Virus record (IMG/VR): IMGVR_UViG_2695420565_000003
From: a virus
Lineage: Duplodnaviria; Heunggongvirae; Uroviricota; Caudoviricetes
Strand: one strand, 5' to 3'
Length of the DNA stretch: 27,343 nucleotides
In this document: positions 1-26,397 of the stretch, piece after piece
Layout: every line of letters begins with the position of its first letter
How positions within the stretch are numbered: the stretch's first letter is position 1
Notes under the pieces: generated by a model
Told to the model about the DNA's origin: nothing
Databases searched by the model: none
What the model saw: the letters and a program-made list of their open reading frames with translations, nothing else
Position numbers and translations under genes: made by a program

Positions 1-127
1 CTCCTCCGGCAGAAGCAGAAAAAGCTTATTATGCTTCCATCGGAAACGATGATCTGGCAGCCTGAGTTCACAGATAAAACACTCTCCAGGAAACCCGGGG
101 CGGTTCAAACAGATTAGCTCTCTGGAT

Positions 128-547
128 TTGGCTAAAGAATTTGGAAAGAGACATCAAGATGTTTTGCGTGACGTTAGGTTAGTTTCTAAAAATACAGGAA
201 TTGCTTTTGTTGAATCTGTGTATGTAGATTCCCAAAATCGAAAAAAGTGTCACTATATGCTGTGTGGACAATTAGCAGATGCGATGTATAAACGCTATAA
301 CGGCTTACGTTTTGGTTTATCTACTGCCGAAAAGATTGCTCTTAACACTATAGAACAAGTTTTAGGTATCAACCTGATTCGCCAGTGTCGGGTGTTAAAC
401 TATCGAATTGATGGTTATGATCCGGTTAATAATATAGCTTATGAAATTGATGAACCAGAACACCAGTACAAGAAAGAGCAAGACGAGATCCGTCAACGAA
501 GAATTGAAAATGAGTTAGGATGCAAGTTTGTCCGAATCAAAGTATGA
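128..547 (+). CDS. Rha-like DNA-binding N-terminus fused to a DUF559/Vsr-like PD-(D/E)xK nuclease-like C-terminus; putative homing-endonuclease-like or regulatory protein, with TTG start or a frameshifted 5' end
   Basis: The N-terminus 'LAKEFGKRHQDVLRDV' matches the Rha-family signature (FGKRHxNVLRDI) as I recall it. The C-terminus 'YRIDGYDPVNNIAYEIDEPEH...DEIRQRRIENELGCKFVRI' resembles the DUF559/Vsr-type endonuclease core. There is no ATG at the 5' end (the track start at 128 is TTG) and the frame is open back to 53. Stop is TGA. Confidence 0.5.
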   Translation: MAKEFGKRHQDVLRDVRLVSKNTGIAFVESVYVDSQNRKKCHYMLCGQLADAMYKRYNGLRFGLSTAEKIALNTIEQVLGINLIRQCRVLNYRIDGYDPVNNIAYEIDEPEHQYKKEQDEIRQRRIENELGCKFVRIKV

Positions 548-551
548 TTTT

Positions 552-580
552 AGCCTCGCCTAGTGCGGGGCTTTTTTGTT
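552..580 (+). terminator. Rho-independent terminator after the 128..547 gene
   Basis: Stem AGCCTCGC / GCGGGGCT (one G-U pair), loop CTAGT, followed by TTTTTTGTTTT. Confidence 0.6.
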
Positions 581-592
581 TTCTATAGGCAT

Positions 593-617
593 AAAAAAAG
601 CCACTCCGAAGAGTGGC
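593..617 (-). terminator. Rho-independent terminator for the minus-strand genes, back-to-back with the + strand terminator
   Basis: On the minus strand this reads GCCACTC-TTCG-GAGTGGC followed by TTTTTTT (the complement of the A-run at 593-599). Confidence 0.6.
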
Positions 618-632
618 AAAGAGAATCAAAAC

Positions 633-866
633 TCAAAAACCTGTTGCTTCTACGATCTGACCATCACCGATCTGAACATAGAATTTAATATCTAACTTCT
701 TGATATTTTTATAGAATTGAGCTACCGATATAGCGTGCTCACTAAGAATCTGTTCTTTCGCTTCCTTCCCGCGATCCGCTGTATAGTAAGCGTAGGCAAT
801 ATCAGCCATCTGTTCAGCGTTAAAACGGGCAGGGCGACCGCGAGTAGCTTTAGTAGTCATAGTCAT
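633..866 (-). CDS. Small putative DNA-binding protein (77 aa)
   Basis: Open frame with an AT-hook-like 'TRGRPARF' and a helix-turn-helix-like segment 'LSEHAISVAQFYKNIKK'. TGA stop. Co-directional with the 895..1500 gene. Confidence 0.45.
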   Translation of the reverse strand: MTMTTKATRGRPARFNAEQMADIAYAYYTADRGKEAKEQILSEHAISVAQFYKNIKKLDIKFYVQIGDGQIVEATGF

Positions 867-894
867 TTCTCCAAATTAAAGTGAATGTTCACCT

Positions 895-1500
895 TTATTT
901 AGAGGACTTACATTTTATCGGAAAAAGTTCTCCATCGTCAACCGACATAAAGAACTCTGCCTTAATCCCGTACTTCTTCAACCGTGAATAGTATGTACCC
1001 CGACTTATATCAACCTTGCGCAGCACTTCGAAGAACTCTTTAGGATTCCTGTAATAGTGGCTATATCGCACGTTAGCGAGTTCTACAAACAATTCCCTTG
1101 TATCACCATAGCCTTTCTTAAAAGCCACGTTACGATAGCGTGTAATGGCATGATTCAATCTCTTCTGTTTAAGCACTTCCCTAATCGGTGTCCACTGCAA
1201 CCGATAGATTGGACCGTCATCCACTCGATAGAATCGCTTAATGTCAAAATCAAACCATTCACGAACTCTATTAAACTCTGTCTGTGATGTTCGGTGCTTC
1301 TTAAAGAAGTTGTGAATATCGGTATACCCATGATCGCGATACAACTCGATTAAAATCTGTTTAGCTTCCTCGCGACTAAAGCCGGATGTTGTGTAATCAG
1401 TCTTCTTGTGATGGTGCTTAACTGGCAAACGATATTCATGATCGGTACAACAAGAAAAGGCTAATTCTAATACATCTCTTTGTTGCTGATTAATTAGCAT
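895..1500 (-). CDS. Hypothetical protein (201 aa) with a C-terminal HTH-like segment
   Basis: Long open frame divergent from TerL. '[19 protein letters not shown]' resembles a helix-turn-helix. Function unknown. Confidence 0.5.
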
Positions 1501-1587
1501 ACAACCCCCTTAAATCTTAATACCCGTATTTATCAAAATATCAACAATTTAATAAATACCTTCATATTTCGTAATGAGGGTAATTAC

Positions 1588-3492
1588 ATGAAACTGATTT
1601 CAAATAAGGCAAAATTAAAAAAGATTCTTAAAAATGCCGCAAAATATATCACTCCACCGCCTAAGCTCCTTCCTTCTGAATGGTGCGAAGCTAATATGGT
1701 GCTGGTAGATGGTCCTCAAGCTGGGGATAAAGTTAAATTACTGTCATTCCAGAAAGGCATGATTGATGCTCCTTTCCTTGAGAACAAGAAAAAGTATGTT
1801 CTGATGACCAGTGCGCAGATCGGAAAGACTACCATCCTGAACGGCATCCTGTTTAACCAGATGGCTAACGATCCATGCAATATGATTATCGGACAATCAA
1901 CCGCTAAAGAAATGTCTCAATATCTCGCGGGTAAGATCCGACCGTCTATCGAAGCATGTGATGCATTAAAAGACGTGGTTACAGACAAGAATGATCGCAA
2001 TGCGGTTAACAACAATAACCAGCTACAGCTAAAAACGAATCACTTCCTGTACATGGTATCGCTTACCAGTCCATCAACCCTACGTGGTAAGACCGCAAAG
2101 GTTGGGTTGCTTGACGAAATCGATGCTGCTACAGCCTCAGAAGAAGGTGATCCGGTGGCACTGGCTGCTAACCGTTTAACTACCTTTGGCGATGAAGGCC
2201 GATTAGTCGTATCCAGTACCCCGACCAGTAAGCTGGGAAGCATTAACCAGCAATGGTTATCAAGCGACATGCGTATGTTTTTTGTTCCGTGTCCGCATTG
2301 CGGGGAACACCAGGTGATCGAGTGGGAAAACGTTCAATTTGAATGGCGTAACATTGATGGTAAGAACTTACCCGATCCTGATACCGCTCGTTATATTTGC
2401 CCCCACTGTAAGAACGCATGGACAGAAGGGGAACGAATCAGGGCAGTAGCACAAGGCGAGTGGAGAGCAACCCGTGAAAGTGAAGTAGCCGGATTCTGGA
2501 TCAGTCGTCTGTATTCACCTTTCAGCACGATTCGCGCTTGTGTGGTTGATTTTAGTCATGCGTGGCAATCCTTTGATTTACAATCCTTTTTTAACACCGT
2601 GTTAGGCAAGGTATACGACGATCAGGACACGGCAGTAGAAGCAAATGAACTGGAACAACTCAAAACAGATGTTTCTATCGAGAATATCCCTGATGACGTG
2701 ATTTTCTTGTGTGCGGGTACTGACCAGCAATTAGATCGCGCAGAAACTACAATCATGGGCGTGGCAAAGGATAAGATTTATATTCTGGATCATCGCAGCT
2801 TTTACGATCATAACTGTGAACGATATGAATCCCCTGTATGGGATAGATTAATCAACTTCCATAAAACCAAATTTACTACTGTATCGGGTGATCGTGTTCC
2901 TATGCTCGCCAGCTTCCTTGATACATCGAACGGTCGATTCACTCAAGCTGGATACCGTATTTGCGGCAAGTGGAAGAACTTACACGCTATCAAAGGTAGT
3001 TCTGCTGGTAACGCTCCGATCATTCCGGTTAAACCTACCCGCACAGGTGGTCATGAATTGCTTATGTTGGGTGTTAATGTGGGTAAAACTGCATTTCGTG
3101 AAATGTTGGCTAGGAACCTGAAAGATAATCCTCATATTGGCTTAGAAATATCAGACACCGTTCCTGATGATTATCTCGATCAGCTTTTAAGTGAATCTGT
3201 CAAGCGTACTACTACTGGCGTGAGATGGGTAAAGAACCCAGGCGTTAGGAACGAGGCGCTCGACTGCGCCGTGTATGCTACAGCGGCTTCTCGCTACGTC
3301 CTTTCAAAAATGTCATGGGAAAAACTCGAAGCCATCAAAGATAGTTTGAACCGTGAACCAGAAGAATCCGTAGAAGCTCCTAAATCGCAATCTAACGAGC
3401 AAATCGAAGAAACTAAGCCAATCACACGACCACAACGTAAAAACATCGCCAGACGCCCAAATAGAGGCCGTAGCTGGGTAACATCGTTCTAA
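1588..3492 (+). CDS. terL: Terminase large subunit, lambda gpA family
   Basis: 634 aa. The N-terminus 'EWCEANMVL...[10 protein letters not shown]...[11 protein letters not shown]' parallels lambda gpA as I recall it. Also present are the 'CPHCGEHQ' and '[10 protein letters not shown]' zinc-ribbon-like motifs, '[17 protein letters not shown]' and C-terminal '[16 protein letters not shown]' (lambda: RNEALDCFVYALAALR). RBS GAGGG upstream. Confidence 0.92.
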
Positions 3493-4072: not shown

Positions 4073-5584
4073 ATGTTTAATCTTTTTCGACGCAAAAAGG
4101 CGGTAGAAACTCCAGTTAAAACTAATCACCGCCAGCAACAACCAAAAATTTTCATCGATAAGCAAGTAGAAAAATTCCAGAAAGACCTATCTCAACGGAG
4201 TTTAGGACTGGTTGGTGATCGTATTGATGGATCACTTCAACAAGACACCATTACAGGAACCTTCAATAAGGCTCTCAAATCGAACGGTAAGCGCCTTTAT
4301 GATCAGGGTCGTACTCTGGCCTTAAACACTTCCGTAGGCAGTCGCTACACGCAATACATCACCGATATGGTGGTAGGTACTGGCCTAGATCCGAAGCCGT
4401 CAATCGTTAAATCGAATGGCAAACTTGATAGCGCACTGAATAAGCAGATCGAAAATGCTTTCTGGAAGTGGGCGCAGAATGCTAAACGATTCTCTCGTAA
4501 CGGTCGCTTTAACTTCCGTGAATTGCTGGTAATGGCTGAACGTGAGCGCGTTATGGGTGGTGAGTGCTTCATCGTTTTAACCAAAGAAAACAATGAGTTA
4601 AATGTTTCTATCCTGTCTGCTGATAAGTGCGACTGGTCGCTAAACCGTGAAATAAGCAAAGAGCGTGCGATATATCAAGGTGTGGAGTATGACGTAGAGA
4701 CGATGAAGCCCGTAGCATACTGGTTTCGTAAAATCAACCTACTGACTCAGACCTACACTGGTGATAACTATCGCGTCGATGCTTCGCAAGTATGCCATTA
4801 TTATCAACCACTTACAGCCGAATCCCTGCGTGGTGTGACTGACTTCCTGCCAGTGATCAAGGATATCGCACATCAAGACGCATTCCGCGAAACTGCGATC
4901 GTCCAGAAACGTATTGCAGCTAGCTCTATGGGCTTTATCGAACGTCCGAAAGATTCTGGTGACGATTTTGATACTGGTGAAGATGATGAACAATATCAAG
5001 CGCCGGAAGTAGTACAGGATTTTGCACCGGGTACTATTCAGGAATTACCGGAAGGGGCAACGATCAAGAGCATCCAGGCGACGCAAAGCGGTGATGACTT
5101 CAATTCGTTCAATGATGCGATGTTTACTAGCGTATCAATGGGCTTAGGCGTGTTCAAACAGGGCTTAACGGGAGATTGTTCACAGATCAACTACTCAGCC
5201 GCACGTTTTGGTGAACTACTTCAACGTAACCGCGTTAAAGCACTTCAAAACAAATTGATTGAAACAGTGGTGTTGCCAATTTTCGAAGCATATCTACGCC
5301 ATTATTCCGCGCGTGGTATGGTTCCGATTCGTATTACTGCAATTCCGCATATTATCGATAATACAACTATTATTCGTCCGCGTTTTGAGTCCGTCGATGT
5401 TATTAAAGATGTGAACGCTGATATTGCTTTAATTGATAAGGGACTTAAATCACGTACTGCCGTTATATTAGAACGTGGTGATGATCCTGAAAAAGTATTC
5501 TCAGAGATTCAAGCCGAAAAGAGCGCACTAAATATTATCGTTGATGGTGAGGGTGAAGAAAAAAATTCCCCAGCCGATCCCTAA
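4073..5584 (+). CDS. Portal protein
   Basis: 503-aa ORF immediately downstream of TerL and upstream of the protease/capsid gene. Size and position are typical of portals. RBS AAGGGGTAAAT. Assigned mainly on synteny. Confidence 0.75.
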   Translation: MFNLFRRKKAVETPVKTNHRQQQPKIFIDKQVEKFQKDLSQRSLGLVGDRIDGSLQQDTITGTFNKALKSNGKRLYDQGRTLALNTSVGSRYTQYITDMVVGTGLDPKPSIVKSNGKLDSALNKQIENAFWKWAQNAKRFSRNGRFNFRELLVMAERERVMGGECFIVLTKENNELNVSILSADKCDWSLNREISKERAIYQGVEYDVETMKPVAYWFRKINLLTQTYTGDNYRVDASQVCHYYQPLTAESLRGVTDFLPVIKDIAHQDAFRETAIVQKRIAASSMGFIERPKDSGDDFDTGEDDEQYQAPEVVQDFAPGTIQELPEGATIKSIQATQSGDDFNSFNDAMFTSVSMGLGVFKQGLTGDCSQINYSAARFGELLQRNRVKALQNKLIETVVLPIFEAYLRHYSARGMVPIRITAIPHIIDNTTIIRPRFESVDVIKDVNADIALIDKGLKSRTAVILERGDDPEKVFSEIQAEKSALNIIVDGEGEEKNSPADP

Positions 5585-7830: not shown

Positions 7831-8121
7831 ATGTTCAAATTATCAGAATCACAATTATCAAGAATGTTCCGAAGTGCTCCTGTATTTTCGGTGGAAGGTG
7901 GTAAATCAATTCGTGCTTATCATGAAATTACTACTACCGACGAACAAGGGGTAATGACAGAGACAGAATTTTTATTTTGTCGTGAGGGAGACTTAAAGCA
8001 GGGTGATATTGTCATTGTAGAAAATCAGCGTTTCAAAGTTCAATACGTTAAGCGCAATGGTGACAATACAACTGATTGCTTTATCACTCTGGCAGGGGGT
8101 ACACATGCTCGCTACCGTTAA
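7831..8121 (+). CDS. Putative head-tail connector / head completion protein (96 aa)
   Basis: Small ORF directly after the capsid gene with RBS AAGGGGGTAACT. Assigned by position only. Confidence 0.45.
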   Translation: MFKLSESQLSRMFRSAPVFSVEGGKSIRAYHEITTTDEQGVMTETEFLFCREGDLKQGDIVIVENQRFKVQYVKRNGDNTTDCFITLAGGTHARYR

Positions 8122-8527
8122 TAACATGCCGAGACTGAAAATCAAACGCGCCTTGCAAGATATTATCGAACAAGATTTAGGTCTGGCTTTAAACGTAGAA
8201 CAAACTCAGCAAGGCTTTAGTGATGATGTGGTTTGTTGGATTATTGGCATGAATGAAACTTACACTAGGGTCCGTGGCGGTAATGCAATGCAAGCTGAAT
8301 GTGTTATCGAAATGCAATTATATTCTCAGATTCATGAAACCAAAATTCATGAGGGTATTTGCCAGATAATCCAGATTCAGCCGGATAACCCACGTTTTAA
8401 AGATTTGGGCTTCTCAATTTCAGATATCACTCCAGTAGCTTCTAATACCGATTATGACGATGATTCTAGTGATGGGGGTATCGTTGGGACACTTAGCCTT
8501 AAATTTTCTTATCTAGCGCGTTTTTAA
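8105..8527 (+). CDS. Putative neck / tail-completion protein (140 aa)
   Basis: The track ORF begins at 8057, but the ATG at 8105 is preceded by a GGGGG RBS and overlaps the upstream stop (ATGCTCGCTACCGTTAA). Assigned by position. Confidence 0.4.
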   Translation: MLATVNNMPRLKIKRALQDIIEQDLGLALNVEQTQQGFSDDVVCWIIGMNETYTRVRGGNAMQAECVIEMQLYSQIHETKIHEGICQIIQIQPDNPRFKDLGFSISDITPVASNTDYDDDSSDGGIVGTLSLKFSYLARF

Positions 8528-18759: not shown

Positions 18760-19179
18760 ATGCTAAAAACTAGGCTTATCACCGATTACATCAATTCTTT
18801 AATAGGTCAGGAGTTCGTTCAGGGTGAGAATGATTGCAATCTCATTGCATGTAAGATCATCGATATTCTCGCTGGTACTGACCTATATAATTCTCTTTAT
18901 AAAAAATATTCAACTAAAGAAGAAGGCTTGAAAATCTGCAAAGAATTAAGCGGGTATTCAAACATCCTTCAACCAATTAAGAAACATTTCAAATTAGTCA
19001 CTGATGATTTACAGGACGGCGACTTACTGGTCACAGCCCACAAATTAGGAAACCGTAATTATTATTCCGTAGTTCCTCATTATTCCGGTTATGGCCTCGT
19101 TGAAGAAGATGGTATCTGGATGACCATTCCTGTTTCAGACATTGACTATGAACAAGTTTATAGATTCGGGGGTGAATAA
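18760..19179 (+). CDS. Tail assembly protein, lambda gpK-like (possible NlpC/P60-type Cys/His peptidase fold)
   Basis: The track ORF starts at 18604. ATG 18760 has a GGAGG RBS 8 nt upstream. It contains 'ENDCNLIACKI' (candidate catalytic Cys) and 'VVPHYSGYG' (candidate His). Assigned by synteny. Confidence 0.5.
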   Translation: MLKTRLITDYINSLIGQEFVQGENDCNLIACKIIDILAGTDLYNSLYKKYSTKEEGLKICKELSGYSNILQPIKKHFKLVTDDLQDGDLLVTAHKLGNRNYYSVVPHYSGYGLVEEDGIWMTIPVSDIDYEQVYRFGGE

Positions 19180-22100
19180 TGGGATTTGAAATATTGGTAG
19201 GCGCGGTTATTGCTGGTGCGTCTGCTGGGATGGCTGCTGCTGCAACATTTTCTGTTATGACCGCAGTCGCTATCGGTATGGCTGCTGGTGCAATGACCTT
19301 GATCGCTTCCACTGTAGGCGCACCAAAAACACCGAAAGTACAAAGCCCAGATAATGCGGTGACACTAGGAACATCAAACGATCCTAAGACAGTATTACCC
19401 GTTCTTTTCGGTACTACCCGCACAGGTGCAATCTGCGTTTACAAAGCAATTTCTAAGCAAGAAAACAATAAGTTAGTGCAAATCTTCGCAATTGCCGAGG
19501 GTGAAATCGACCATTACAAAGCACTGTTTATCGATAACAAAAATGTTCTTGTTGGTAAGAACATGACGATCCGTGATGGTGTACTGGACAAAGGCAACAT
19601 TAAAGAAGAATACCGGAAAGTTTTAGAGGTTGAGTTCCGCACGGGTAAGAATCCTAACACCGCTTTGTCACTGGCAAAACGTCACTTAGGGTCAGACTGG
19701 AACGACAACTACAAAGGCAATGGTATTGCAACCATGTGTATTGTGTTACGCCGTGATGATAAATCTCTTGCTGCTGGTGTTGATATTCTCCAACCAAATA
19801 GCCAGGTAGCGGTCGATGTTATGGGCTTAAAAATCCGTAACCTTGAAACCAATGCTATTGAGGCTAGCACTAACGGCGTGGACCAGATTTTCCACTACCT
19901 AACAAATGAAAAATATGGCTTATCCGTACCAATTGAAAACATTAACGTTGATTCATTCCTGAAAGTACGTAAGCAAGTACGTCAGATGGACCTACATTCG
20001 AACGGTGCATGTGATCCGAACGCCAGCTTTAAAGAGAACTTGACTAGCCTTATGCAGACTTTCGGCGGGGTGATGTTCGAATCCTTCGGAAGAATTACCC
20101 TGAAACTGGATGCTCCTGATATTGTTAAGCATACATTCAATGAAGACAATATCATGATGGGTAAGGTATCACTGAAAACAGGTGGCACTAACGGTTATTT
20201 CAATACCATTAACGCGATGTATCAAGAACCATCAATTGACTATTCAGAGCAAATGCTACGTTATCCGGCTGATGCTGAAAACGATGCTACTATTCGTCAA
20301 GATGGTCGAATTATCGCTAAGGATATCGAATATCGTTTTGTTAAGTCTAAAGCCCAGATTGATAAACTTGCGAGCATTGAACGAAATAAATCTCGTATCA
20401 CTCAGGTTATCAGCTTTATGACTACTGACGCATTCACTGCCGAGGTGTGGGATGTTATCAGCGTAACCTATGATGAATTAAAACTGAATAATTCACTTTG
20501 GCGTATTACTGCAATTGACCGCTCGATTGATTCTGGTATTGCTGGGATGATGACGATCACCGCCACAGAATATAATTCTCAGGTTTATACTGACCTGAAC
20601 TATGCGGCTAACCCAGATAACCGACCAAGTGGTTTACCGGATTCAATGACAGTACAGAAGCCTACTAATTTCAGAATTAAGGCAACTGGTGAAACAATCT
20701 ATGGTAAGAACGTTACTTTAACATGGGATGCGCCGGAAGATTTTAACCGCTACGGCTTCCAGATTGATTACCGTGTTAGTGGATCGCCTAACTGGATTAA
20801 GCTGGGACAGACTTCACAGCAAATTTTCAGTGTCAGTGCACTGGCAAAAGATCGTTCTTATGATTACCGAGTTTGTGCTTTCGGTATCATCGCGAGATCT
20901 GATTGGGTAGAACTGATTAACCAGAATCCTACTGTTACCTATGAATTACCGACTCCGGTTATTCGAATCAAAAATCAGGGTAGCACGCCAGGAACTTTCG
21001 AAGGTAATGATCTGATTATCGAATGGGAAAATCAGCAACAATTAGATGTGATGATCAACGGTGAAACTAACAAGTTTAGTGACCTGTTTGAAGCATACAT
21101 TATCAAGGTGACTAACAAGGCTGGTAAGTCTATTCAGTACCGTACCCGCGATCCTGAATCATGGACTTATACACTTGATATGAACCAGTTTAACGGCCTT
21201 TCGCGACAACTTACGGTAGAAGTATCGGCTAAGGGCTATAACAACTCAGAGAGCGCCCCAGCGCGTTTAGTGGCTATTAACCCACAGCATAAAGGTATTA
21301 AAGGTTTTAGTGCGCGTGGTGGTTTTAATGCTGCTTTCGTTAGCTGGAACGGTGATGTTCTGGAACAGGACTATGCTGGGACGATTGTACAATTTGCAAC
21401 CGATAGCACTTTCTCCGATGCAAGGGCGGTAAGCACGAATAGTGTTAGCCATACATCTTTCGACTTGACGGACGGGGATTATTATCTTCGCGCGGCACAT
21501 TACGATATTTTCGGTATGGATGATGCTGTTTGGTCTGAACCGTATTTCATGCAAATGAAATCTACCATTAGCTGGGACGATCAGGACAAAGAAGCACTGG
21601 AAGACCTGATCGGTTTACAAGATCGATTAGATGAAACTATCGCGGATGCTATTAAGCAAGCTGGCGCTAATGCCGATGCTAAAATTGATGCAATGCATAA
21701 GCAAATCACTACTGAAACGGGTAAAACAGTTCAAGCCTCAGCCGATACTCTCAAGAGTCTGATTGCTTCTGGTGATAAGGCAAGTTCAACTAAGATTGAT
21801 CAGGTTAAAGCTGAACTGAAAGGCGATATCACCAAAGAAGTTAGTGCATCTGCTACTACCCTGAAACAAGCTATTGCTACCAGTGAGGCAGCAAGCGCAA
21901 CTAAGATTGATCAAGTTCGGGTAGAAATGGATGGCAAGATTGCTGGTGTGAATCAGGAAGCAGATGTAAAAATCGATGCTTTGAAGGGAACCATTAACAG
22001 CAAATATAACCTGGCAGTTAATGCAGATGGTCGCGTGGCTGGTATTCACATGAGCGCAAGCAATGATCCGGCACAACCGACTAAAATCATCTTTACGGCT

Positions 22101-22958
22101 GATAAAATTGCTGTAGCTCCGCAGAATGGGACCGATGTTTGCCCGTTTGGTATCGAAGGTAACAAGGTTTATCTCGATAATGCGATGATTCGTAATGCTG
22201 CAATTGGTACAGCCCAGATTAATGATGCGGCAATTACTACCGCTAAGATCGGCAATGCTGCAATTAACAGCGCGAAGATTCAGGACGGGGCAATCACTAA
22301 CGCCAAGATCGTAAACGGTGCTATTGATAATGCCAAAATTGGTAACTATATCCAGTCTTCCAACTGGAACGGATCTACCGGATGGCATATCAACAAGAGC
22401 GGGTCCGCTACGTTCATGAACGCTACCGTTAAAGGTAATATCACGGCTGATTCTGGTACTCTGAACAACGTCACGATTAACTCTAGCTGTGTTATTAAGG
22501 GTATGCTTGAAGCTACTCAGGTTAAGGGTGATTTCGTTAAGGTGATTGGTCGTAAGTTCCCGCACCGTGATGTTAACGTTGATAATGGTTATGCTGGCTA
22601 TCCACAGGGTACGGTCACTGTTCGCGTTGAAGATGATCACAAGTTCGATCGTCAAATCGTTATTCCGGCAATTAGTTTTGGTGGATTGCGAGCGCGTGAA
22701 GGGTCGAACAATAATACCTATTACGACACATGTCGCCTGATTGTTCGTAAGAATGGGTCAGAGTTGTATAATAGGGCGTATGGCGGTAATACTGGTCTTT
22801 ACTCAGGTGTTATTGATATGCCAGCGGGTAAAGGTGCTGTGACCTTGACCTTTGAAGTGCAATCAAGCGCAATCAACAACTGGACGCCTAGCACATGGAT
22901 CAGTGATTTAACTGTAATGGTAACTAAAAAAGCCACTACGGGTATTACTGTTTCTTAA
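19179..22958 (+). CDS. Central tail fiber / host specificity protein (lambda gpJ-like) with an N-terminal gpI-like segment
   Basis: 1259 aa. The N-terminus is a hydrophobic Gly/Ala-rich segment followed by 'PKTPKVQ...VLPVLFGTTRTG', resembling the lambda gpI C-terminus. The C-terminus 'GTLNNVTINSSC...DDHKFDRQIVIPAISF...VIDMPAGKGAVTLTFEV...TVMVTKKATTGITVS' resembles the lambda J receptor-binding end as I recall it. Confidence 0.85.
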   Translation: MGFEILVGAVIAGASAGMAAAATFSVMTAVAIGMAAGAMTLIASTVGAPKTPKVQSPDNAVTLGTSNDPKTVLPVLFGTTRTGAICVYKAISKQENNKLVQIFAIAEGEIDHYKALFIDNKNVLVGKNMTIRDGVLDKGNIKEEYRKVLEVEFRTGKNPNTALSLAKRHLGSDWNDNYKGNGIATMCIVLRRDDKSLAAGVDILQPNSQVAVDVMGLKIRNLETNAIEASTNGVDQIFHYLTNEKYGLSVPIENINVDSFLKVRKQVRQMDLHSNGACDPNASFKENLTSLMQTFGGVMFESFGRITLKLDAPDIVKHTFNEDNIMMGKVSLKTGGTNGYFNTINAMYQEPSIDYSEQMLRYPADAENDATIRQDGRIIAKDIEYRFVKSKAQIDKLASIERNKSRITQVISFMTTDAFTAEVWDVISVTYDELKLNNSLWRITAIDRSIDSGIAGMMTITATEYNSQVYTDLNYAANPDNRPSGLPDSMTVQKPTNFRIKATGETIYGKNVTLTWDAPEDFNRYGFQIDYRVSGSPNWIKLGQTSQQIFSVSALAKDRSYDYRVCAFGIIARSDWVELINQNPTVTYELPTPVIRIKNQGSTPGTFEGNDLIIEWENQQQLDVMINGETNKFSDLFEAYIIKVTNKAGKSIQYRTRDPESWTYTLDMNQFNGLSRQLTVEVSAKGYNNSESAPARLVAINPQHKGIKGFSARGGFNAAFVSWNGDVLEQDYAGTIVQFATDSTFSDARAVSTNSVSHTSFDLTDGDYYLRAAHYDIFGMDDAVWSEPYFMQMKSTISWDDQDKEALEDLIGLQDRLDETIADAIKQAGANADAKIDAMHKQITTETGKTVQASADTLKSLIASGDKASSTKIDQVKAELKGDITKEVSASATTLKQAIATSEAASATKIDQVRVEMDGKIAGVNQEADVKIDALKGTINSKYNLAVNADGRVAGIHMSASNDPAQPTKIIFTADKIAVAPQNGTDVCPFGIEGNKVYLDNAMIRNAAIGTAQINDAAITTAKIGNAAINSAKIQDGAITNAKIVNGAIDNAKIGNYIQSSNWNGSTGWHINKSGSATFMNATVKGNITADSGTLNNVTINSSCVIKGMLEATQVKGDFVKVIGRKFPHRDVNVDNGYAGYPQGTVTVRVEDDHKFDRQIVIPAISFGGLRAREGSNNNTYYDTCRLIVRKNGSELYNRAYGGNTGLYSGVIDMPAGKGAVTLTFEVQSSAINNWTPSTWISDLTVMVTKKATTGITVS
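21682..21990 (+). repeat. In-frame tandem repeats (~111 bp / 37 aa units beginning 'KID') within the J-like gene
   Basis: 'KIDAMHKQITTETGKTVQASADTLKSLIASGDKASST' is followed by 'KIDQVKAELKGDITKEVSASATTLKQAIATSEAASAT' and then partial units 'KIDQVRVEMDGK...' and 'KIDALKG...'. Confidence 0.5.
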
Positions 22959-22978
22959 AAATTTAATTTTAATAATTA

Positions 22979-23020
22979 ATCCCGCTTAATTCTTTTGAGT
23001 TAGGCGGGATTATTTTTATC
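22979..23020 (+). terminator. Terminator after the J-like gene
   Basis: AATCCCGC ... GCGGGATT 8-bp stem with an 18-nt loop, followed by ATTTTTAT. Confidence 0.55.
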
Positions 23021-23064: not shown

Positions 23065-23343
23065 ATGACTGAAATTATATATGGCGGTATCGGTGTTATC
23101 GCCTTAATTTGTGGTGGTCTTTGGAGACTTCACCGAAATCAATTAGCAACTGAAAATAGATTGTCGAAATTGGAATCCAGCGACGCATTGTTAAACCAGA
23201 AGTTTGAGACGATGCAGAATAACCATACTCAGATTGCTGAACGTGTTTACCAAATGGAACAAACACTACACGGTATAGAGAAGAAAGTGGTTGCGATGGA
23301 CGCCAAATTTGACCAAGTTCTCGACATACTCAAACAAAAATAA
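23065..23343 (+). CDS. Membrane protein with an N-terminal TM helix and coiled coil (holin-associated or i-spanin-like lysis protein)
   Basis: 'IIYGGIGVIALICGGLW' is a hydrophobic helix followed by a heptad-like charged region. RBS GGGGG. Confidence 0.45.
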   Translation: MTEIIYGGIGVIALICGGLWRLHRNQLATENRLSKLESSDALLNQKFETMQNNHTQIAERVYQMEQTLHGIEKKVVAMDAKFDQVLDILKQK

Positions 23344-23361: not shown

Positions 23362-23532
23362 ATGAAGAATAAACTTAAGAAATATTTTGGTTATCTCTTG
23401 ATTGTCGCCCTCACTTATAACGTAGCTATTAGACCTCTGCTAACGTCCTTTGGGCTTGAACTCCCGGCTATGACCGTGGATGAACAATTGCTAAGGACAC
23501 TGGCGGGGGTCTTTTCGTTATTAGGGGGCTAA
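23362..23532 (+). CDS. Small single-TM protein (56 aa), candidate holin/pinholin; not in the supplied ORF track
   Basis: ATG preceded by AAAGGGGTGAATAT. Translation is 'MKNKLKKYFGYLLIVALTYNVAIRPLLTSFGLELPAMTVDEQLLRTLAGVFSLLGG'. The stop overlaps the next start. Confidence 0.4.
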   Translation: MKNKLKKYFGYLLIVALTYNVAIRPLLTSFGLELPAMTVDEQLLRTLAGVFSLLGG

Positions 23533-23533
23533 C

Positions 23534-24217
23534 ATGGCAACCAGTACCAATAAACGAAACGCTCTAAGGACTAAGAAAGCGTTACGGCAATGGTCTGAAA
23601 AGGCAACCGATACATTCGAAAGGGCACTAGGGGAAGGGGCGATCTTTGCTTCCAGAGCACTCCAGAAGAAGATTAACAAGAATGTTGATAGACCTACTCG
23701 CTGGACTCAGCAAGCTGTAGGTAATACCAACTACAAGAACCGATCAGGGACGAGACACCAAATCTTCATCAAGGGCGCAAGGGATAAGGACAAGAAGATC
23801 GGCAGTCAGGATGACTATCTGAAACACTATTTCGATGGGGGCAAAATCAATAAGCTAGTTCCAATCGCCAACGGTAAGGTCTTAGACTCCCACGGGAACA
23901 TTAAGGCCATTAAAGGCGGTAAGATGATGCGTAACATCGAAAATGGCAACTTCATCAAGGTAGAGAACCAGGAAGGGACTTTTATCATGAAGAAGTACAA
24001 GCCTAAGAAATCCCGAACCAAACGCGCTAGGAATGGATCTGCGGTGGCAAAACGTCGCTTAGAGAAACGCATACAGAAACAGAGTAAGCGAATTGTTGCC
24101 GTTAAGTCGGATAAAATTTCTACTCGTTATTCGACGCTAGGATCGTGGGAAAGCAACGAAGCAATGATGCTTGAAAACATCAATAAGCACATTAAATCGC
24201 GCATGAAATACGTTTAA
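23534..24217 (+). CDS. Highly basic (Lys/Arg-rich) hypothetical protein (227 aa)
   Basis: ORF with a GGGGG RBS. Strongly polybasic, suggesting nucleic-acid binding. Function unknown. Confidence 0.55.
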   Translation: MATSTNKRNALRTKKALRQWSEKATDTFERALGEGAIFASRALQKKINKNVDRPTRWTQQAVGNTNYKNRSGTRHQIFIKGARDKDKKIGSQDDYLKHYFDGGKINKLVPIANGKVLDSHGNIKAIKGGKMMRNIENGNFIKVENQEGTFIMKKYKPKKSRTKRARNGSAVAKRRLEKRIQKQSKRIVAVKSDKISTRYSTLGSWESNEAMMLENINKHIKSRMKYV

Positions 24218-24226
24218 TCAATAAAT

Positions 24227-24250
24227 ACCCTCATAGAATCTTATGGGGGT
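24227..24250 (+). other. Stem-loop after the 227-aa gene
   Basis: ACCCTCATA-GAATCT-TATGGGGGT (9-bp stem with one G-U pair). No T-run. The downstream arm doubles as the GGGGG RBS of the next gene. Confidence 0.3.
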
Positions 24251-24255
24251 ATAAC

Positions 24256-24603
24256 ATGGCTAAAAATATTTTCACTGAATTTCCTACTTATCCGGTTGAT
24301 CAGCTTTCCGGTATTTTTATTAATGGCATTAGCCCAGAATCAATGACCTATGATTTTGAGGCGAAGAGAGTTAAACATAAACAATATAAAGAATGTATCC
24401 GTGACCATGAAAAGGGGACCGTGTTTTGTGTCGCTACATTGGCTAAACGTCCTAAATATCGTTTTCGTGTAGGGCAAGAAGTCGATGTAGTTAATCCTTA
24501 TAGCTTTAACTGTCTGGGTGATGCACGCGCGGTGTGTGTAGGCACTGCTCCTTATTATATCAAGGGTATGCGCTTTATTGGTTATATCTTCGAAATGATC
24601 TAA
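24256..24603 (+). CDS. Hypothetical protein (115 aa)
   Basis: ORF with a GGGGG RBS. No recognised motif. Confidence 0.5.
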   Translation: MAKNIFTEFPTYPVDQLSGIFINGISPESMTYDFEAKRVKHKQYKECIRDHEKGTVFCVATLAKRPKYRFRVGQEVDVVNPYSFNCLGDARAVCVGTAPYYIKGMRFIGYIFEMI

Positions 24604-24612
24604 GGGGGTAAT

Positions 24613-24966
24613 ATGTTAAGTAAGCATTTTTCTCGCAAGGAATTTAAATGTAAATGCGGAAAATGTGATTATGATACAATCGACGCTGAATTACTGGTGA
24701 TTCTTGAGGATGTACGAGAGCACTTCGGGAAGCCAGTAATTATTAACAGTGGGAACCGTTGCCCGACTCATAATAAGAATGTTGGCGGCGCAACCAATAG
24801 CTATCATGTTCGAGGCCGTGCGGCTGACATTGTTATCAAGGGTGTCTCGCCTGATATTGTTCATGCTTATCTTGATGGGAAATATCCTACTCAATACGGC
24901 TTAGGAAAATATAAAACCTTTACGCATATTGATTCCAGATCAAAAAAATCACGGTGGAATGGATAA
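24613..24966 (+). CDS. Endolysin, peptidase M15-type (L-alanyl-D-glutamate / D-Ala-D-Ala peptidase fold)
   Basis: 'SGNRCPTHNKNVGGATNSYHVRGRAADI' and 'THID' match the zinc-peptidase M15 signature. RBS AAGGGGGTAATATG. No signal or SAR sequence. Confidence 0.8.
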   Translation: MLSKHFSRKEFKCKCGKCDYDTIDAELLVILEDVREHFGKPVIINSGNRCPTHNKNVGGATNSYHVRGRAADIVIKGVSPDIVHAYLDGKYPTQYGLGKYKTFTHIDSRSKKSRWNG

Positions 24967-24972
24967 AACAAA

Positions 24973-24997
24973 AGCGCCTCTGGTGGGCGCTTTTTTG
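24973..24997 (+). terminator. Rho-independent terminator after the endolysin gene
   Basis: AGCGCC-TCTGGTG-GGCGCT followed by TTTTTTG. Confidence 0.75.
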
Positions 24998-25111
24998 TTA
25001 GAATATGCTGGCGACGTTAGCTATATTTCTGACCATTTTTTCATTATAGACAAATATACCGCAGAAGATAAAGTGGTATTTGATGAAGCAGATCCGTCAC
25101 TGGTTGAAGCA

Positions 25112-25315
25112 ATGAAAGAACCGGAACCAGTAGAAGAAACTCCGGTAGTGGAACCAGTCATTGAAGAAGTTCAGCCAGCAGTTGAAGAAGTACCAGAAGT
25201 TAACGCAGAATCTCCGGTAGCCAACATTTTCTCTGACGAGGCAGAACATCGTTCTCCGGTACACGACACAGAAACATTTTGCGATCTTACTGGTTTCCAA
25301 AACTACAATAATTAA
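25112..25315 (+). CDS. Small acidic Pro/Glu/Val-rich protein (67 aa from this ATG; start uncertain)
   Basis: The track ORF (24929..25315) starts inside the endolysin gene and crosses the terminator, so the real start must be internal: GTG 25073 or ATG 25112. 'MKEPEPVEETPVVEPVIEEVQPAVEEVPEV...'. No strong RBS. Confidence 0.3.
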   Translation: MKEPEPVEETPVVEPVIEEVQPAVEEVPEVNAESPVANIFSDEAEHRSPVHDTETFCDLTGFQNYNN

Positions 25316-25325
25316 TTCTTATAAA

Positions 25326-25362
25326 TAGTAGTGAATATTATTTTATTGAGGATTCACTACTA
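25326..25362 (+). promoter_or_regulatory. Perfect 11-bp inverted repeat spanning the RBS and start codon of the 25362 gene
   Basis: TAGTAGTGAAT-(15 nt, containing TGAGG)-ATTCACTACTA. The right arm ends at the A of the ATG. Confidence 0.5.
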
Positions 25363-26360
25363 TGAATAATACTTTAGCAAAGGATATCGAATTTACCGCA
25401 AAAAGCAAACGTGCGACCCCTCCGGTCGAATATGAAACCAGAATCATTAAAGTTTGTCAAGCGCATGGATGGTTATACAGTGGTTTTGTGCTTCCTGTAA
25501 AGAAACCATTCCAGAACACCAAAGTTTGCATAGAAGTTAACGGAAAGGTTAAAACGCCATGTATTAGTCATGTTCTAACTGGTCAGTTTACTGGCAAAGA
25601 TAGAGTATCACCGCCTAAGAAGAAGTTTAGATTTACCGAAGAAGAACACTTAGAAAACGCTCGCAAGTTCTACAAGCCGATAGGGTGGGATGTGTTAGGT
25701 CTGGCTGAACCTTATCAGGGTGTTGACACTAAACTAATTCTTCGTTGTAAGTGCCACGGAAAGATTCACAAGAAAGGTGATTTACACAATAACCGCAGAC
25801 AAGGCGGGTTAACATGCCCTTTGGTTAGGGGGGTACTTAAATCAATTCAGAATGGTAGAAAACAGGTTATCAGAAACAAGTTTGCACAGCGCCCTATGCA
25901 CTTTTATCTAATTCGTGTTGGCGAGAAGTTTTTCAAATATGGAATTACCACTCGCAAAGATCCGATGCAACGGGTAAGAGAACACCAGAAGCACACCAGC
26001 GAGAAAATCACCTTTGAATGCTCACATTTGTTTAACATTGGATGGAAAGCTGGTGATTTAGAAATGGGGATTAAAAAGAATATTCAGGGCAAGAAAATCC
26101 CACGTAAGGTAATGAATAGCGGATTCACAGAAACGCTACCGATTAGCAAGCTGAAAGATGTTAAATCATTCATCAATGAATACATCCACACCAACCCATC
26201 TAAGCCAATGTATTTTGATGATACCAACGCAATCAATCTGAACAACTACATTAGTGATGAAGACATAGAACGAGATTTATCGCAGTGGATGAATGCACCG
26301 TTAGCTGATTTAATACCGGAAGACTTAGAACTCGATTTAAGCCCATTAGAGACACTCTAA
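25362..26360 (+). CDS. T5orf172 / GIY-YIG-like domain protein with an N-terminal Cys/His-rich region
   Basis: 'FYLIRVGEKFFKYGITTRKDPMQRVREHQ' has GIY-(x10)-YIG spacing followed by Arg residues, and the later 'SGFTETLP' resembles the T5orf172 GxTEWF box. The N-terminal half has 'RCKCHGKIHKKGDLH...CP'. Confidence 0.55.
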   Translation: MNNTLAKDIEFTAKSKRATPPVEYETRIIKVCQAHGWLYSGFVLPVKKPFQNTKVCIEVNGKVKTPCISHVLTGQFTGKDRVSPPKKKFRFTEEEHLENARKFYKPIGWDVLGLAEPYQGVDTKLILRCKCHGKIHKKGDLHNNRRQGGLTCPLVRGVLKSIQNGRKQVIRNKFAQRPMHFYLIRVGEKFFKYGITTRKDPMQRVREHQKHTSEKITFECSHLFNIGWKAGDLEMGIKKNIQGKKIPRKVMNSGFTETLPISKLKDVKSFINEYIHTNPSKPMYFDDTNAINLNNYISDEDIERDLSQWMNAPLADLIPEDLELDLSPLETL

Positions 26361-26375
26361 CGCAATTAAATTAAA

Positions 26376-26397
26376 AAGGGGTACGAATGTACCCCTT
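26376..26397. terminator. Bidirectional terminator between convergent genes
   Basis: Perfect AAGGGGTAC-GAAT-GTACCCCTT hairpin with A/T-rich flanks on both sides. Confidence 0.6.

Follow-up and report, generated by a model that had tools for sequence, protein, structure and literature searches.

A polybasic protein encoded behind the tail-tip gene of an Escherichia coli siphovirus prophage is a candidate displaced tail completion protein

The siphovirus prophage analysed here encodes a strongly basic protein of 227 residues, g227, which is probably, on indirect homology and a predicted fold, a divergent tail completion protein (TCP) of the lambda gpZ type (Neck1, the class of HK97 gp10, SPP1 gp16.1 and 80α gp51), displaced from its usual genomic position. 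Long-tailed phages are believed to depend on TCPs, but structural work placed these proteins in the particle only in 2024, and it is mostly the site of the gene that serves to identify them. What is unusual about g227 is genomic: its gene lies outside the neck cluster, is coupled to a gene for a small hydrophobic protein (g56) and is always followed by the gene of a conserved 115-residue protein (g115).

The window, that is the whole stretch of 27,343 nucleotides that was analysed (IMG/VR record IMGVR_UViG_2695420565_000003), is the late half of a prophage of ~37 kb from E. coli, integrated within hicB by a large serine recombinase. Of 5426 complete E. coli genomes, 55 contain the segment around g227 and g115, at 94-99% DNA identity and always in the chromosome, and protein homologues of both are also known from Salmonella and Providencia. 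A preliminary description of this DNA had pointed to g227 and g115 as two genes of unknown function standing between membrane proteins and an endolysin. Both genes are real and their boundaries proved exact (Table 1), and the neighbours were confirmed as well: the small membrane proteins g92 and g56 upstream, and downstream a Peptidase_M15_3 endolysin (Pfam PF08291, 1e-27; PHROG 894 'endolysin', 2e-45).

All five genes from g92 to the endolysin carry a GGGG(G) Shine-Dalgarno motif 6-8 nt 5' of the ATG. In front of them, a hairpin with a 16-bp stem (6 GC pairs) followed by TTTTTAT delimits g92 through g332 as a unit of transcription or of read-through. The first protein, g92, has its hydrophobicity peak at residues 4-22 and exhibits weak database matches only, to coiled-coil and Rz-like spanin proteins; positional homologues of 91-101 aa are encoded directly after the tail-tip gene in all relatives.

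Table 1. Features of the window discussed in the text
Feature	Coordinates	Strand	Description
Canonical neck slot	7831-8527	+	ORFs 7831-8121 (96 aa) and 8057-8527 (156 aa); no recognisable TCP
J-like tail-tip protein	19179-22958	+	1259 aa; RefSeq 'phage tail tip domain-containing protein'; the conserved unit is always attached to its gene
Hairpin	22977-23012	+	Intrinsic-terminator-like; between the tail-tip gene and g92
g92	23065-23343	+	92 aa; N-terminal transmembrane helix and coiled coil; opens the unit; putative holin-like or Rz-like protein
g56	23362-23532	+	56 aa; small hydrophobic protein, PHROG 2024; translationally coupled to g227
g227	23534-24217	+	227 aa; ATG start; polybasic; proposed divergent TCP (lambda gpZ/Neck1 type)
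g115	24256-24603	+	115 aa; ATG start; conserved partner of g227
M15_3 peptidase (endolysin)	24613-24966	+	117 aa; Pfam PF08291, PHROG 894; exchangeable neighbour outside the conserved unit

Composition, family and predicted fold of g227

With 35 Lys and 20 Arg (24.2% K+R) against 19 Asp+Glu, g227 has a net charge of +36 and a pI of 10.7, and it is a clear outlier in the window, where the other 23 proteins contain 5-17% K+R. It had been described as Lys/Arg-rich over its whole length. The richness itself stands, but the charge is spread unevenly along the chain, with a peak at residues 141-200 (+17) and slightly negative stretches at 21-40 and 201-220. The protein does not exhibit any hydrophobic segment (highest 19-residue Kyte-Doolittle mean 0.44), and every member of its family is net positive, from +14 to +44. 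Lambda gpZ (PF06763 Minor_tail_Z, PHROG 27) is nearly identical in charge, with 24.0% K+R and a net charge of +37 for 192 aa, so that the polybasic composition of g227 would be a property of the gpZ-type family and not an oddity, and lends the TCP assignment support independent of homology and fold. Strong basicity is not universal to TCPs, HK97 gp10 having a net charge of only +4 as compared to the +37 of gpZ.

Close homologues of g227 are few and unannotated. Neither g227 nor g115 matches any family in Pfam or NCBIfam, and neither has a tblastn match among 50,697 phage genomes, from which a divergent variant (of arrangement B, described below) retrieved the single record DCP80. A direct search of the PHROGs with g227 returned PHROG 1924 as its only match, and a weak one. 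Profile methods reach further. An exhaustive search of 1.84 billion representative proteins, with an HMM derived from close homologues alone, identified only 12 relatives. Some of these belong firmly to PHROG 1924 'minor tail protein' (1e-33 to 1e-46), and one core member, P0033, was reached at E 1.3e-4. The profile of the enterobacterial g227 subfamily aligns over 110 columns with that of core PHROG 1924, which includes gp44 of the Rhodobacter phage RcCronus (hhalign, 98.7%, E 4e-16). On these profile comparisons, the membership of g227 in PHROG 1924 is secure. RcCronus gp44 is thus a true family member; it is likewise polybasic (net +21) and encoded away from the neck cluster. Compared with the PHROG 1924 core, the enterobacterial proteins harbor an extra Lys/Arg-rich insertion (columns 215-250 of alignment A2). 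The label 'minor tail protein' of gp44 is an annotation, for which no experimental basis was found in the Rhodobacter phage papers. Against PDB sequences, the profiles A1, A3 and A7 gave chance-level matches only, to an OXA beta-lactamase, a pyruvate carboxylase and a SLAM6 Ig domain (E 0.06-0.25).

PHROG 1924 connects in turn to gpZ. Lambda gpZ, a member of PHROG 27 'tail completion or Neck1' (3e-69), matches PHROG 1924 as well (E 1.9e-4); conversely, the core member P0033 matches PHROG 27 (5.5e-3) and Pfam Minor_tail_Z (0.11). When profiles are compared, that of the PHROG 1924 core aligns with one of the gpZ family, built from eight sequences, along the N-terminal 66 columns (70.8%, E 3.8e-5). 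The similarity between g227 and gpZ/Neck1 proteins is therefore indirect, since it runs through PHROG 1924, and is restricted to the N-terminal ~70 residues, a helical region. No direct match links g227 to the curated TCP families (Pfam PF06763 and PF04883; PHROGs 27, 5 and 3725), and hhalign found nothing between a combined g227 and PHROG 1924 profile and the gpZ-family profile, or between the g227 family and the single sequences of lambda gpZ, HK97 gp10 and T5 p143.

A first AlphaFold model of g227, based on 7 close homologues, was unusable (pLDDT 44); a second, based on a 19-sequence alignment, is usable (pLDDT 74, pTM 0.60). From the N-terminus, it predicts two long helices (residues 2-50), a β hairpin (62-79) and a short helix (92-101), followed by a small β domain (~103-153), a basic helix (170-184), two strands and a long C-terminal helix (205-226). 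The predicted order of elements is that described for 80α gp51, the first experimentally located TCP, and the extra β domain between the terminal helices of the model matches the apical β domain described for a gpZ model (PMC11661146). The 80α protein (HK97 gp10 family, PDB 9mu2 chain P) is about half the size of g227, lacks the inserted β domain and the helix 170-184, and is encoded in the canonical position; the two share 10% sequence identity, and their structural similarity score is modest, marginally above background. Foldseek comparison of the model with BFVD returned one match with an E value of 2.7e-5 and, with weak scores, several proteins annotated as 'HK97-gp10 putative tail component' or 'type I neck protein', while comparison with the PDB returned nothing.

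Two further points of likeness with lambda are that the window phage infects the same host genus and is a siphovirus with a lambda-like tail tip. The length of g227 falls inside the 112-255 aa span of the studied TCPs. The preliminary description recognised no known family by eye and proposed sensitive HMM and structure searches; Pfam and NCBIfam indeed hold none, but remote homology and the predicted fold, as set out above, place g227 with the gpZ-type TCPs.

Gene order and coupling to g56

In relatives, g92, g56, g227 and g115 form a fixed unit 3' of the tail-tip gene, whose orthologues lie directly upstream at all loci examined. Three arrangements can be distinguished. Arrangement A is that of the window: a Providencia prophage carries the same five genes behind its tail-tip gene, and lineage L065 presents J, g92-like, g56-like, g227-like and g115-like genes followed by a VanY-type endolysin (PHROG 465, 2e-52). 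Phage DCP80 has yet another endolysin in the slot behind the unit. Arrangement B is observed in distant IMG/VR relatives, whose g227-like proteins are ~30% identical and g115-like proteins 33-43% identical. Its order is tube, DUF6950, J, g92-like, (EndoVII), g56-like, g227-like, g115-like, tail assembly chaperone (TAC), its frameshift partner (TAC'), tape measure (TMP): the unit is located within the tail operon, in at least five lineages, with no endolysin adjacent and the TAC and tape-measure genes following directly. In arrangement C (lineage L066), the unit is again behind J, and the downstream distal-tail (Dit) and hub genes are inverted.

The endolysin is not part of the unit, as it is non-orthologous between lineages and missing in arrangement B. 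It is a variable, exchangeable neighbour, present when the unit happens to end the late operon. The two genes had been viewed as inserted into a lysis cassette, a view that these gene orders contradict: the unit is constant with the tail tip, while the endolysin is exchangeable, or absent in at least five lineages.

A second constant is the coupling of g56 to g227. In the window, the TAA stop of g56 is found 1 nt before the ATG of g227. In every lineage examined the two codons overlap or adjoin, with a TAATG junction in six and 1-4 nt between the genes in three, and whatever the arrangement, a g56 homologue stands before the g227-like gene, even in the distant metagenomic phage L003. An o-spanin function of g56 is ruled out, as the protein has no Cys and no lipobox. 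TCP biology as known does not predict a membrane-protein partner for g227, and this conserved coupling is a point that the TCP assignment does not explain.

Gene position also speaks against a TCP. In siphoviruses, the TCP gene is located immediately 5' of the terminator and tube genes, a rule that the myoviruses P2 and Mu break; lambda Z, accordingly, is flanked by FII and U in the neck cluster. The g227 gene is instead found beside lysis genes and behind the tail-tip gene, ~10-15 kb from the tube-like genes at 8537-9370 and 13125-13598. A partial parallel is provided by T5 p143 (PHROG 3725, 255 aa), which is annotated as a TCP, is of comparable size and was recently mapped to the side of the tail tip, an association reminiscent of the tail-tip linkage of g227. 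The two proteins have no detectable similarity, p143 is less basic (15.7% K+R), and the authors who described p143 question its membership in the TCP family. By virtue of the same linkage, a location of g227 at the tail tip is possible.

The core PHROG 1924 genes are displaced in another way. In RcCronus, L003, L085 and probably L002, they are found 1-2 genes upstream of TerS and a gpA-type TerL and not behind the tail tip; that of RcCronus is the last gene of the genome, before cos, and that of L002 is next to an HNH-like gene. This neighbourhood raises the possibility that g227 and PHROG 1924 are packaging or DNA-end factors acting at cos together with the gpA-type terminase, in recognition, protection or hand-over of the DNA end, without being a stable part of the virion. 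The endonuclease VII gene that often accompanies the unit (endonuclease VII is packaging-related in T4), a weak small-terminase/HTH match of one family member and a strong positive charge suited to DNA binding are in line with such a role, and the terminase-proximal position in the four core lineages fits it as well as it fits a TCP. Linkage to cos and terminase is, however, also expected for a TCP that binds a DNA end, as has been proposed for gpZ, and synteny is therefore non-discriminating. In the window lineage, moreover, g227 is ~10 kb away from TerL on the circular map and attached to the tail tip, and in arrangement B it is embedded in the tail operon; separate TerS-like proteins co-occur with family members; and the homology and fold signals favour TCPs over terminase subunits. 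A packaging function, the foremost of the rival readings, is thus considered unlikely. The narrower proposal that g227 is the missing small terminase was rejected, given the co-occurring distinct TerS-like proteins and a weak TerS-like candidate elsewhere in the prophage.

The neck cluster and the companion protein g115

If g227 is a TCP, the canonical slot for such a protein should be vacant. Neither of the window's neck ORFs (96 and 156 aa) matches a PHROG, and hhalign of the g227 family against the 156-aa ORF found nothing. A similar situation prevails in RcCronus: it has no annotated TCP, nothing separates its head-closure gene from its tail gene, and its PHROG 1924 gene is displaced too. 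As the slot contains no detectable TCP, g227 is the sole candidate, absence of a match being weak evidence.

The protein encoded next to g227 is itself well conserved. Sixteen homologues of g115 were collected from E. coli, Salmonella and Providencia, and an alignment of 15 sequences shows 46 columns without any variation. It is recognisable down to 33% identity, and relatives at 33-43% still adjoin a g227-like gene; in all tail-tip-linked lineages g115 is immediately 3' of g227, whatever endolysin follows or none. Searches of Pfam, PHROGs, NCBIfam and PDB sequences gave no match for g115, nor did searches of the PHROGs with its distant relatives. Beside PHROG 1924 genes outside the enterobacterial lineages, g115 is not detectable, and the 132-aa gene behind the L003 homologue bears no detectable likeness to it.

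All five siphoviruses studied in this respect have the terminator gene, for a protein of 115-161 aa, immediately 3' of the TCP gene. The size of g115, its invariable position after g227 and the order of arrangement B, which resembles lambda Z, U, (V), G, T, H, would suit a tail terminator, g227 and g115 then being a classical TCP-terminator pair that has moved together. Charge argues otherwise: known terminators are acidic (pI 4.05 for gpU, 4.35 for HK97 gp11 and 4.85 for T5 p142), whereas g115, with a pI of 8.9, is of opposite charge to this 4.0-4.9 range. The 156-aa neck ORF is acidic (pI 4.66), holds the canonical position just 5' of the tube-like 277-aa gene, and fits the terminator role better than g115. 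Hhalign of the g115 family against gpU, FII, gpV, HK97 gp6, gp9 and gp11, T5 p142, the neck ORFs and RcCronus gp09, gp10 and gp43 found nothing, the terminator comparisons being of a profile with single sequences and hence of low sensitivity. The absence of g115 beside the more distant PHROG 1924 genes also runs counter to a classical pair. Since g115 is basic, resembles no terminator in these comparisons and has a more suitable competitor in the neck cluster, it is probably not the tail terminator, and a displaced TCP-terminator pair is rather improbable. With low confidence, a lineage-specific assembly or lumen partner of the TCP-like g227 is ranked above it.

Possible mode of action and significance

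On a second and less likely rival reading, g227 and/or g115 could be lysis accessories (an antiholin-like regulator, an endolysin partner or a spanin substitute) whose position between the membrane proteins and the endolysin would be functional. An endolysin gene is indeed found 10-400 nt behind g115 in the window, the Providencia prophage, L065 and DCP80; a search of the window for lipobox ORFs yielded no spanin candidate, which leaves lysis functions unaccounted for; and the terminator-like hairpin parts the unit from the tail operon. Both g227 and g115, however, lack transmembrane segments, signal peptides and lipoboxes, and neither is similar to any lysis PHROG. The non-orthologous endolysins in the slot, and their absence where TAC and tape-measure genes follow, speak against such a role, and the homology, predicted fold and charge of g227 point to a virion protein and not to a lysis factor. 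A lysis function is accordingly very improbable. The preliminary description had named as refuting a clear homology assignment to a routine function, such as a known lysis regulator; the assignment reached here is largely of that routine kind, in virion assembly and not in lysis regulation.

An anti-defence or host-takeover factor, nucleic-acid-binding, either ejected or expressed early and without a part in virion assembly, is hardly credible: only composition and closeness to the prophage's variable cargo end speak for it, whereas g227 is co-oriented with and tightly linked to the late structural genes in every lineage and is constant, as part of the conserved core, while the cargo between endolysin and recombinase varies, and nothing observed speaks positively for a part in defence or anti-defence. 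Among the three roles put forward in the preliminary description, a nucleic-acid-binding protein, an internal virion or ejected protein, and an anti-defence factor, it is the internal virion protein in contact with nucleic acid that agrees with the TCP assignment; nothing backs the last.

Characterised TCPs suggest how g227 may act. That of 80α is a monomer in the negatively lined lumen of the neck, faces the DNA end with a positively charged side and binds the N-termini of the tape measure. For lambda gpZ, binding to one DNA end has been proposed, and particles without it are 500-fold less infectious. SPP1 gp16.1 assists the joining of tail to head and is required to route DNA into the cytoplasm. 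By analogy, we infer that g227 is present in the virion: one or a few copies would enter the top of the finished tail, where the positive surface of the protein would touch the DNA end inside the head-tail junction. It would thereby aid head-tail joining and may be required for productive DNA delivery.

A bolder and improbable extension takes the genomic companions into account. According to it, g56, g227 and g115 would constitute a self-contained, mobile DNA-end and DNA-routing module, in which a small membrane-inserting protein travels together with a gpZ-like TCP in the tail lumen. The TAATG coupling would fix the g56:g227 ratio; after ejection, g56 and g227, with g115, would form or guide a DNA conduit through the inner membrane; and the module would move among sites (behind the tail tip, within the tail operon, 5' of the terminase), in many cases accompanied by EndoVII. 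If true, this would provide a molecular basis for the second function of TCPs, the correct routing of DNA into the cytoplasm, which genetic work has shown for SPP1 gp16.1.

In itself, the finding is largely ordinary, a structural gene beside an endolysin. The consistent displacement of a TCP family, the coupling to g56 and the 115-aa companion are what is worth recording. A gene that is carried by ~1% of complete E. coli genomes, as well as by prophages of Salmonella and Providencia, and is annotated as 'hypothetical protein' receives a provisional role, and the apparent gap in the lysis cassette becomes the end of the tail module beside an exchangeable endolysin. Should the TCP assignment be wrong, the family would still be a widespread polybasic late protein. 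Should it be right, the identification of TCPs by position would fail for a whole group of siphoviruses, those with gpA-type terminases (PHROG 1924), and the companions g56 and g115 may offer a handle on how TCPs act during DNA delivery.

Tail module, neck and terminase genes

Between 13125 and 24603, the window genes succeed one another in the order tube, adhesin, tail assembly chaperone (TAC) and its frameshift partner (TAC'), tape measure (TMP), distal tail protein (Dit), hub, DUF6950, tail-tip gene J, and the unit formed by the small membrane proteins g92 and g56, the polybasic proposed tail completion protein g227 and its partner g115. In relatives of arrangement B, which carry the unit inside the tail operon, the order is tube, DUF6950, J, unit, TAC, TAC', TMP. 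Two blocks of the tail module are exchanged in the relatives as compared to the window (L033/L069, L036/L073, L068, L071, L074/L075 and L066 compared); in L066, Dit and hub are inverted besides. The window also harbors two paralogues of phage protein family PHROG 158, with a 1204-aa fibre gene between them.

In the best-matching E. coli genome (L001, strain PRO_A-1412-6M-A_ESBL), an IS5-like ISKpn26 element at 4383-5363 lies in the neck region of the prophage and interrupts the ORF that corresponds to the 156-aa one of the window. This prophage copy is probably defective.

In window 1-3492, no small-terminase gene is found upstream of the gpA-type large terminase gene: the ORFs located there, 633-866 and 895-1500, are both on the opposite strand. 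A 184-aa ORF (L006 20044-20598) is the sole TerS-like candidate; it lies in the prophage left arm, outside the window, and displays weak similarity to the protein in the TerS position of a distant metagenomic phage, L003 (phmmer E 2e-3, small database).

Genes beside and downstream of the unit

A recombination endonuclease VII gene, exhibiting Pfam matches of 1e-10 to 1e-12, accompanies the unit in relatives; the window has no such gene. A single slot 3' of g115 houses non-orthologous endolysins, that of the window and Providencia being distinct from that of relative L065 and from that of phage DCP80 (L077). The cargo that separates the endolysin from the serine recombinase varies among relatives. 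Concerning the other lysis functions, a check of the whole window revealed no lipobox ORF fit for an o-spanin or u-spanin in a plausible place, and g92 exhibits only a marginal match to Rz-like proteins (E 0.036).

Positions of the features discussed, in the window and in related loci
Feature	Locus	Position	Remarks
gpA-type large terminase gene	window	1588-3492	
Major-tail-protein-like gene, 277 aa	window	8537-9370	PHROG 158; fibre/Ig-like C-terminal part (5e-8)
Major-tail-protein-like gene, 157 aa	window	13125-13598	PHROG 158, 6e-21
Endonuclease VII gene	L069	5796-6272	between g92-like and g56-like; arrangement B
Endonuclease VII gene	L036	5335-5826	between g92-like and g56-like; arrangement B
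Endonuclease VII gene	L077 (DCP80)	13349-13816	between g92-like and g56-like
Endonuclease VII gene	L003	872-1315	directly upstream of g56-like gene
M15_3 endolysin	window	24613-24966	slot after g115; M15_3 in Providencia too
VanY-type endolysin	L065	7358-7741	slot after g115; PHROG 465, 2e-52
Annotated endolysin, different again	L077 (DCP80)	15259-15723	slot after g115
Acidic 118-aa ORF	window	24959-25315	overlaps end of endolysin gene
g332, 332-aa nuclease-like protein	window	25362-26360	PHROG 681, 3e-20; variants annotated GIY-YIG
Bidirectional terminator-like hairpin	window	26376-26397	between g332 and recombinase gene
829-aa DEAD/ResIII helicase	L008 (Providencia)	10772-13261	cargo; opposite strand

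Segments apparently shared with T4-type phages

GenBank record PQ671644, 'Escherichia phage DCP80', is a 141 kb T4-type record (Straboviridae). One segment of it consists of siphovirus tail and lysis genes of the window's lineage, namely tape-measure-like, J-like, EndoVII, g227-like, g115-like and endolysin genes; this segment is adjoined by T4-type motA and nucleoid-disruption genes. The DCP80 assembly may be chimeric.

Within the acidic 118-aa ORF, window 25058-25298 is matched by the prohead protease inhibitor gene 'inh' of the T4-like phages RB49, Cognac, SSG23 and MIZ2/3/6, over ~240 nt at 78-82% DNA identity. Judged from this similarity, a temperate siphovirus and T-even phages appear to have exchanged a gene fragment here.
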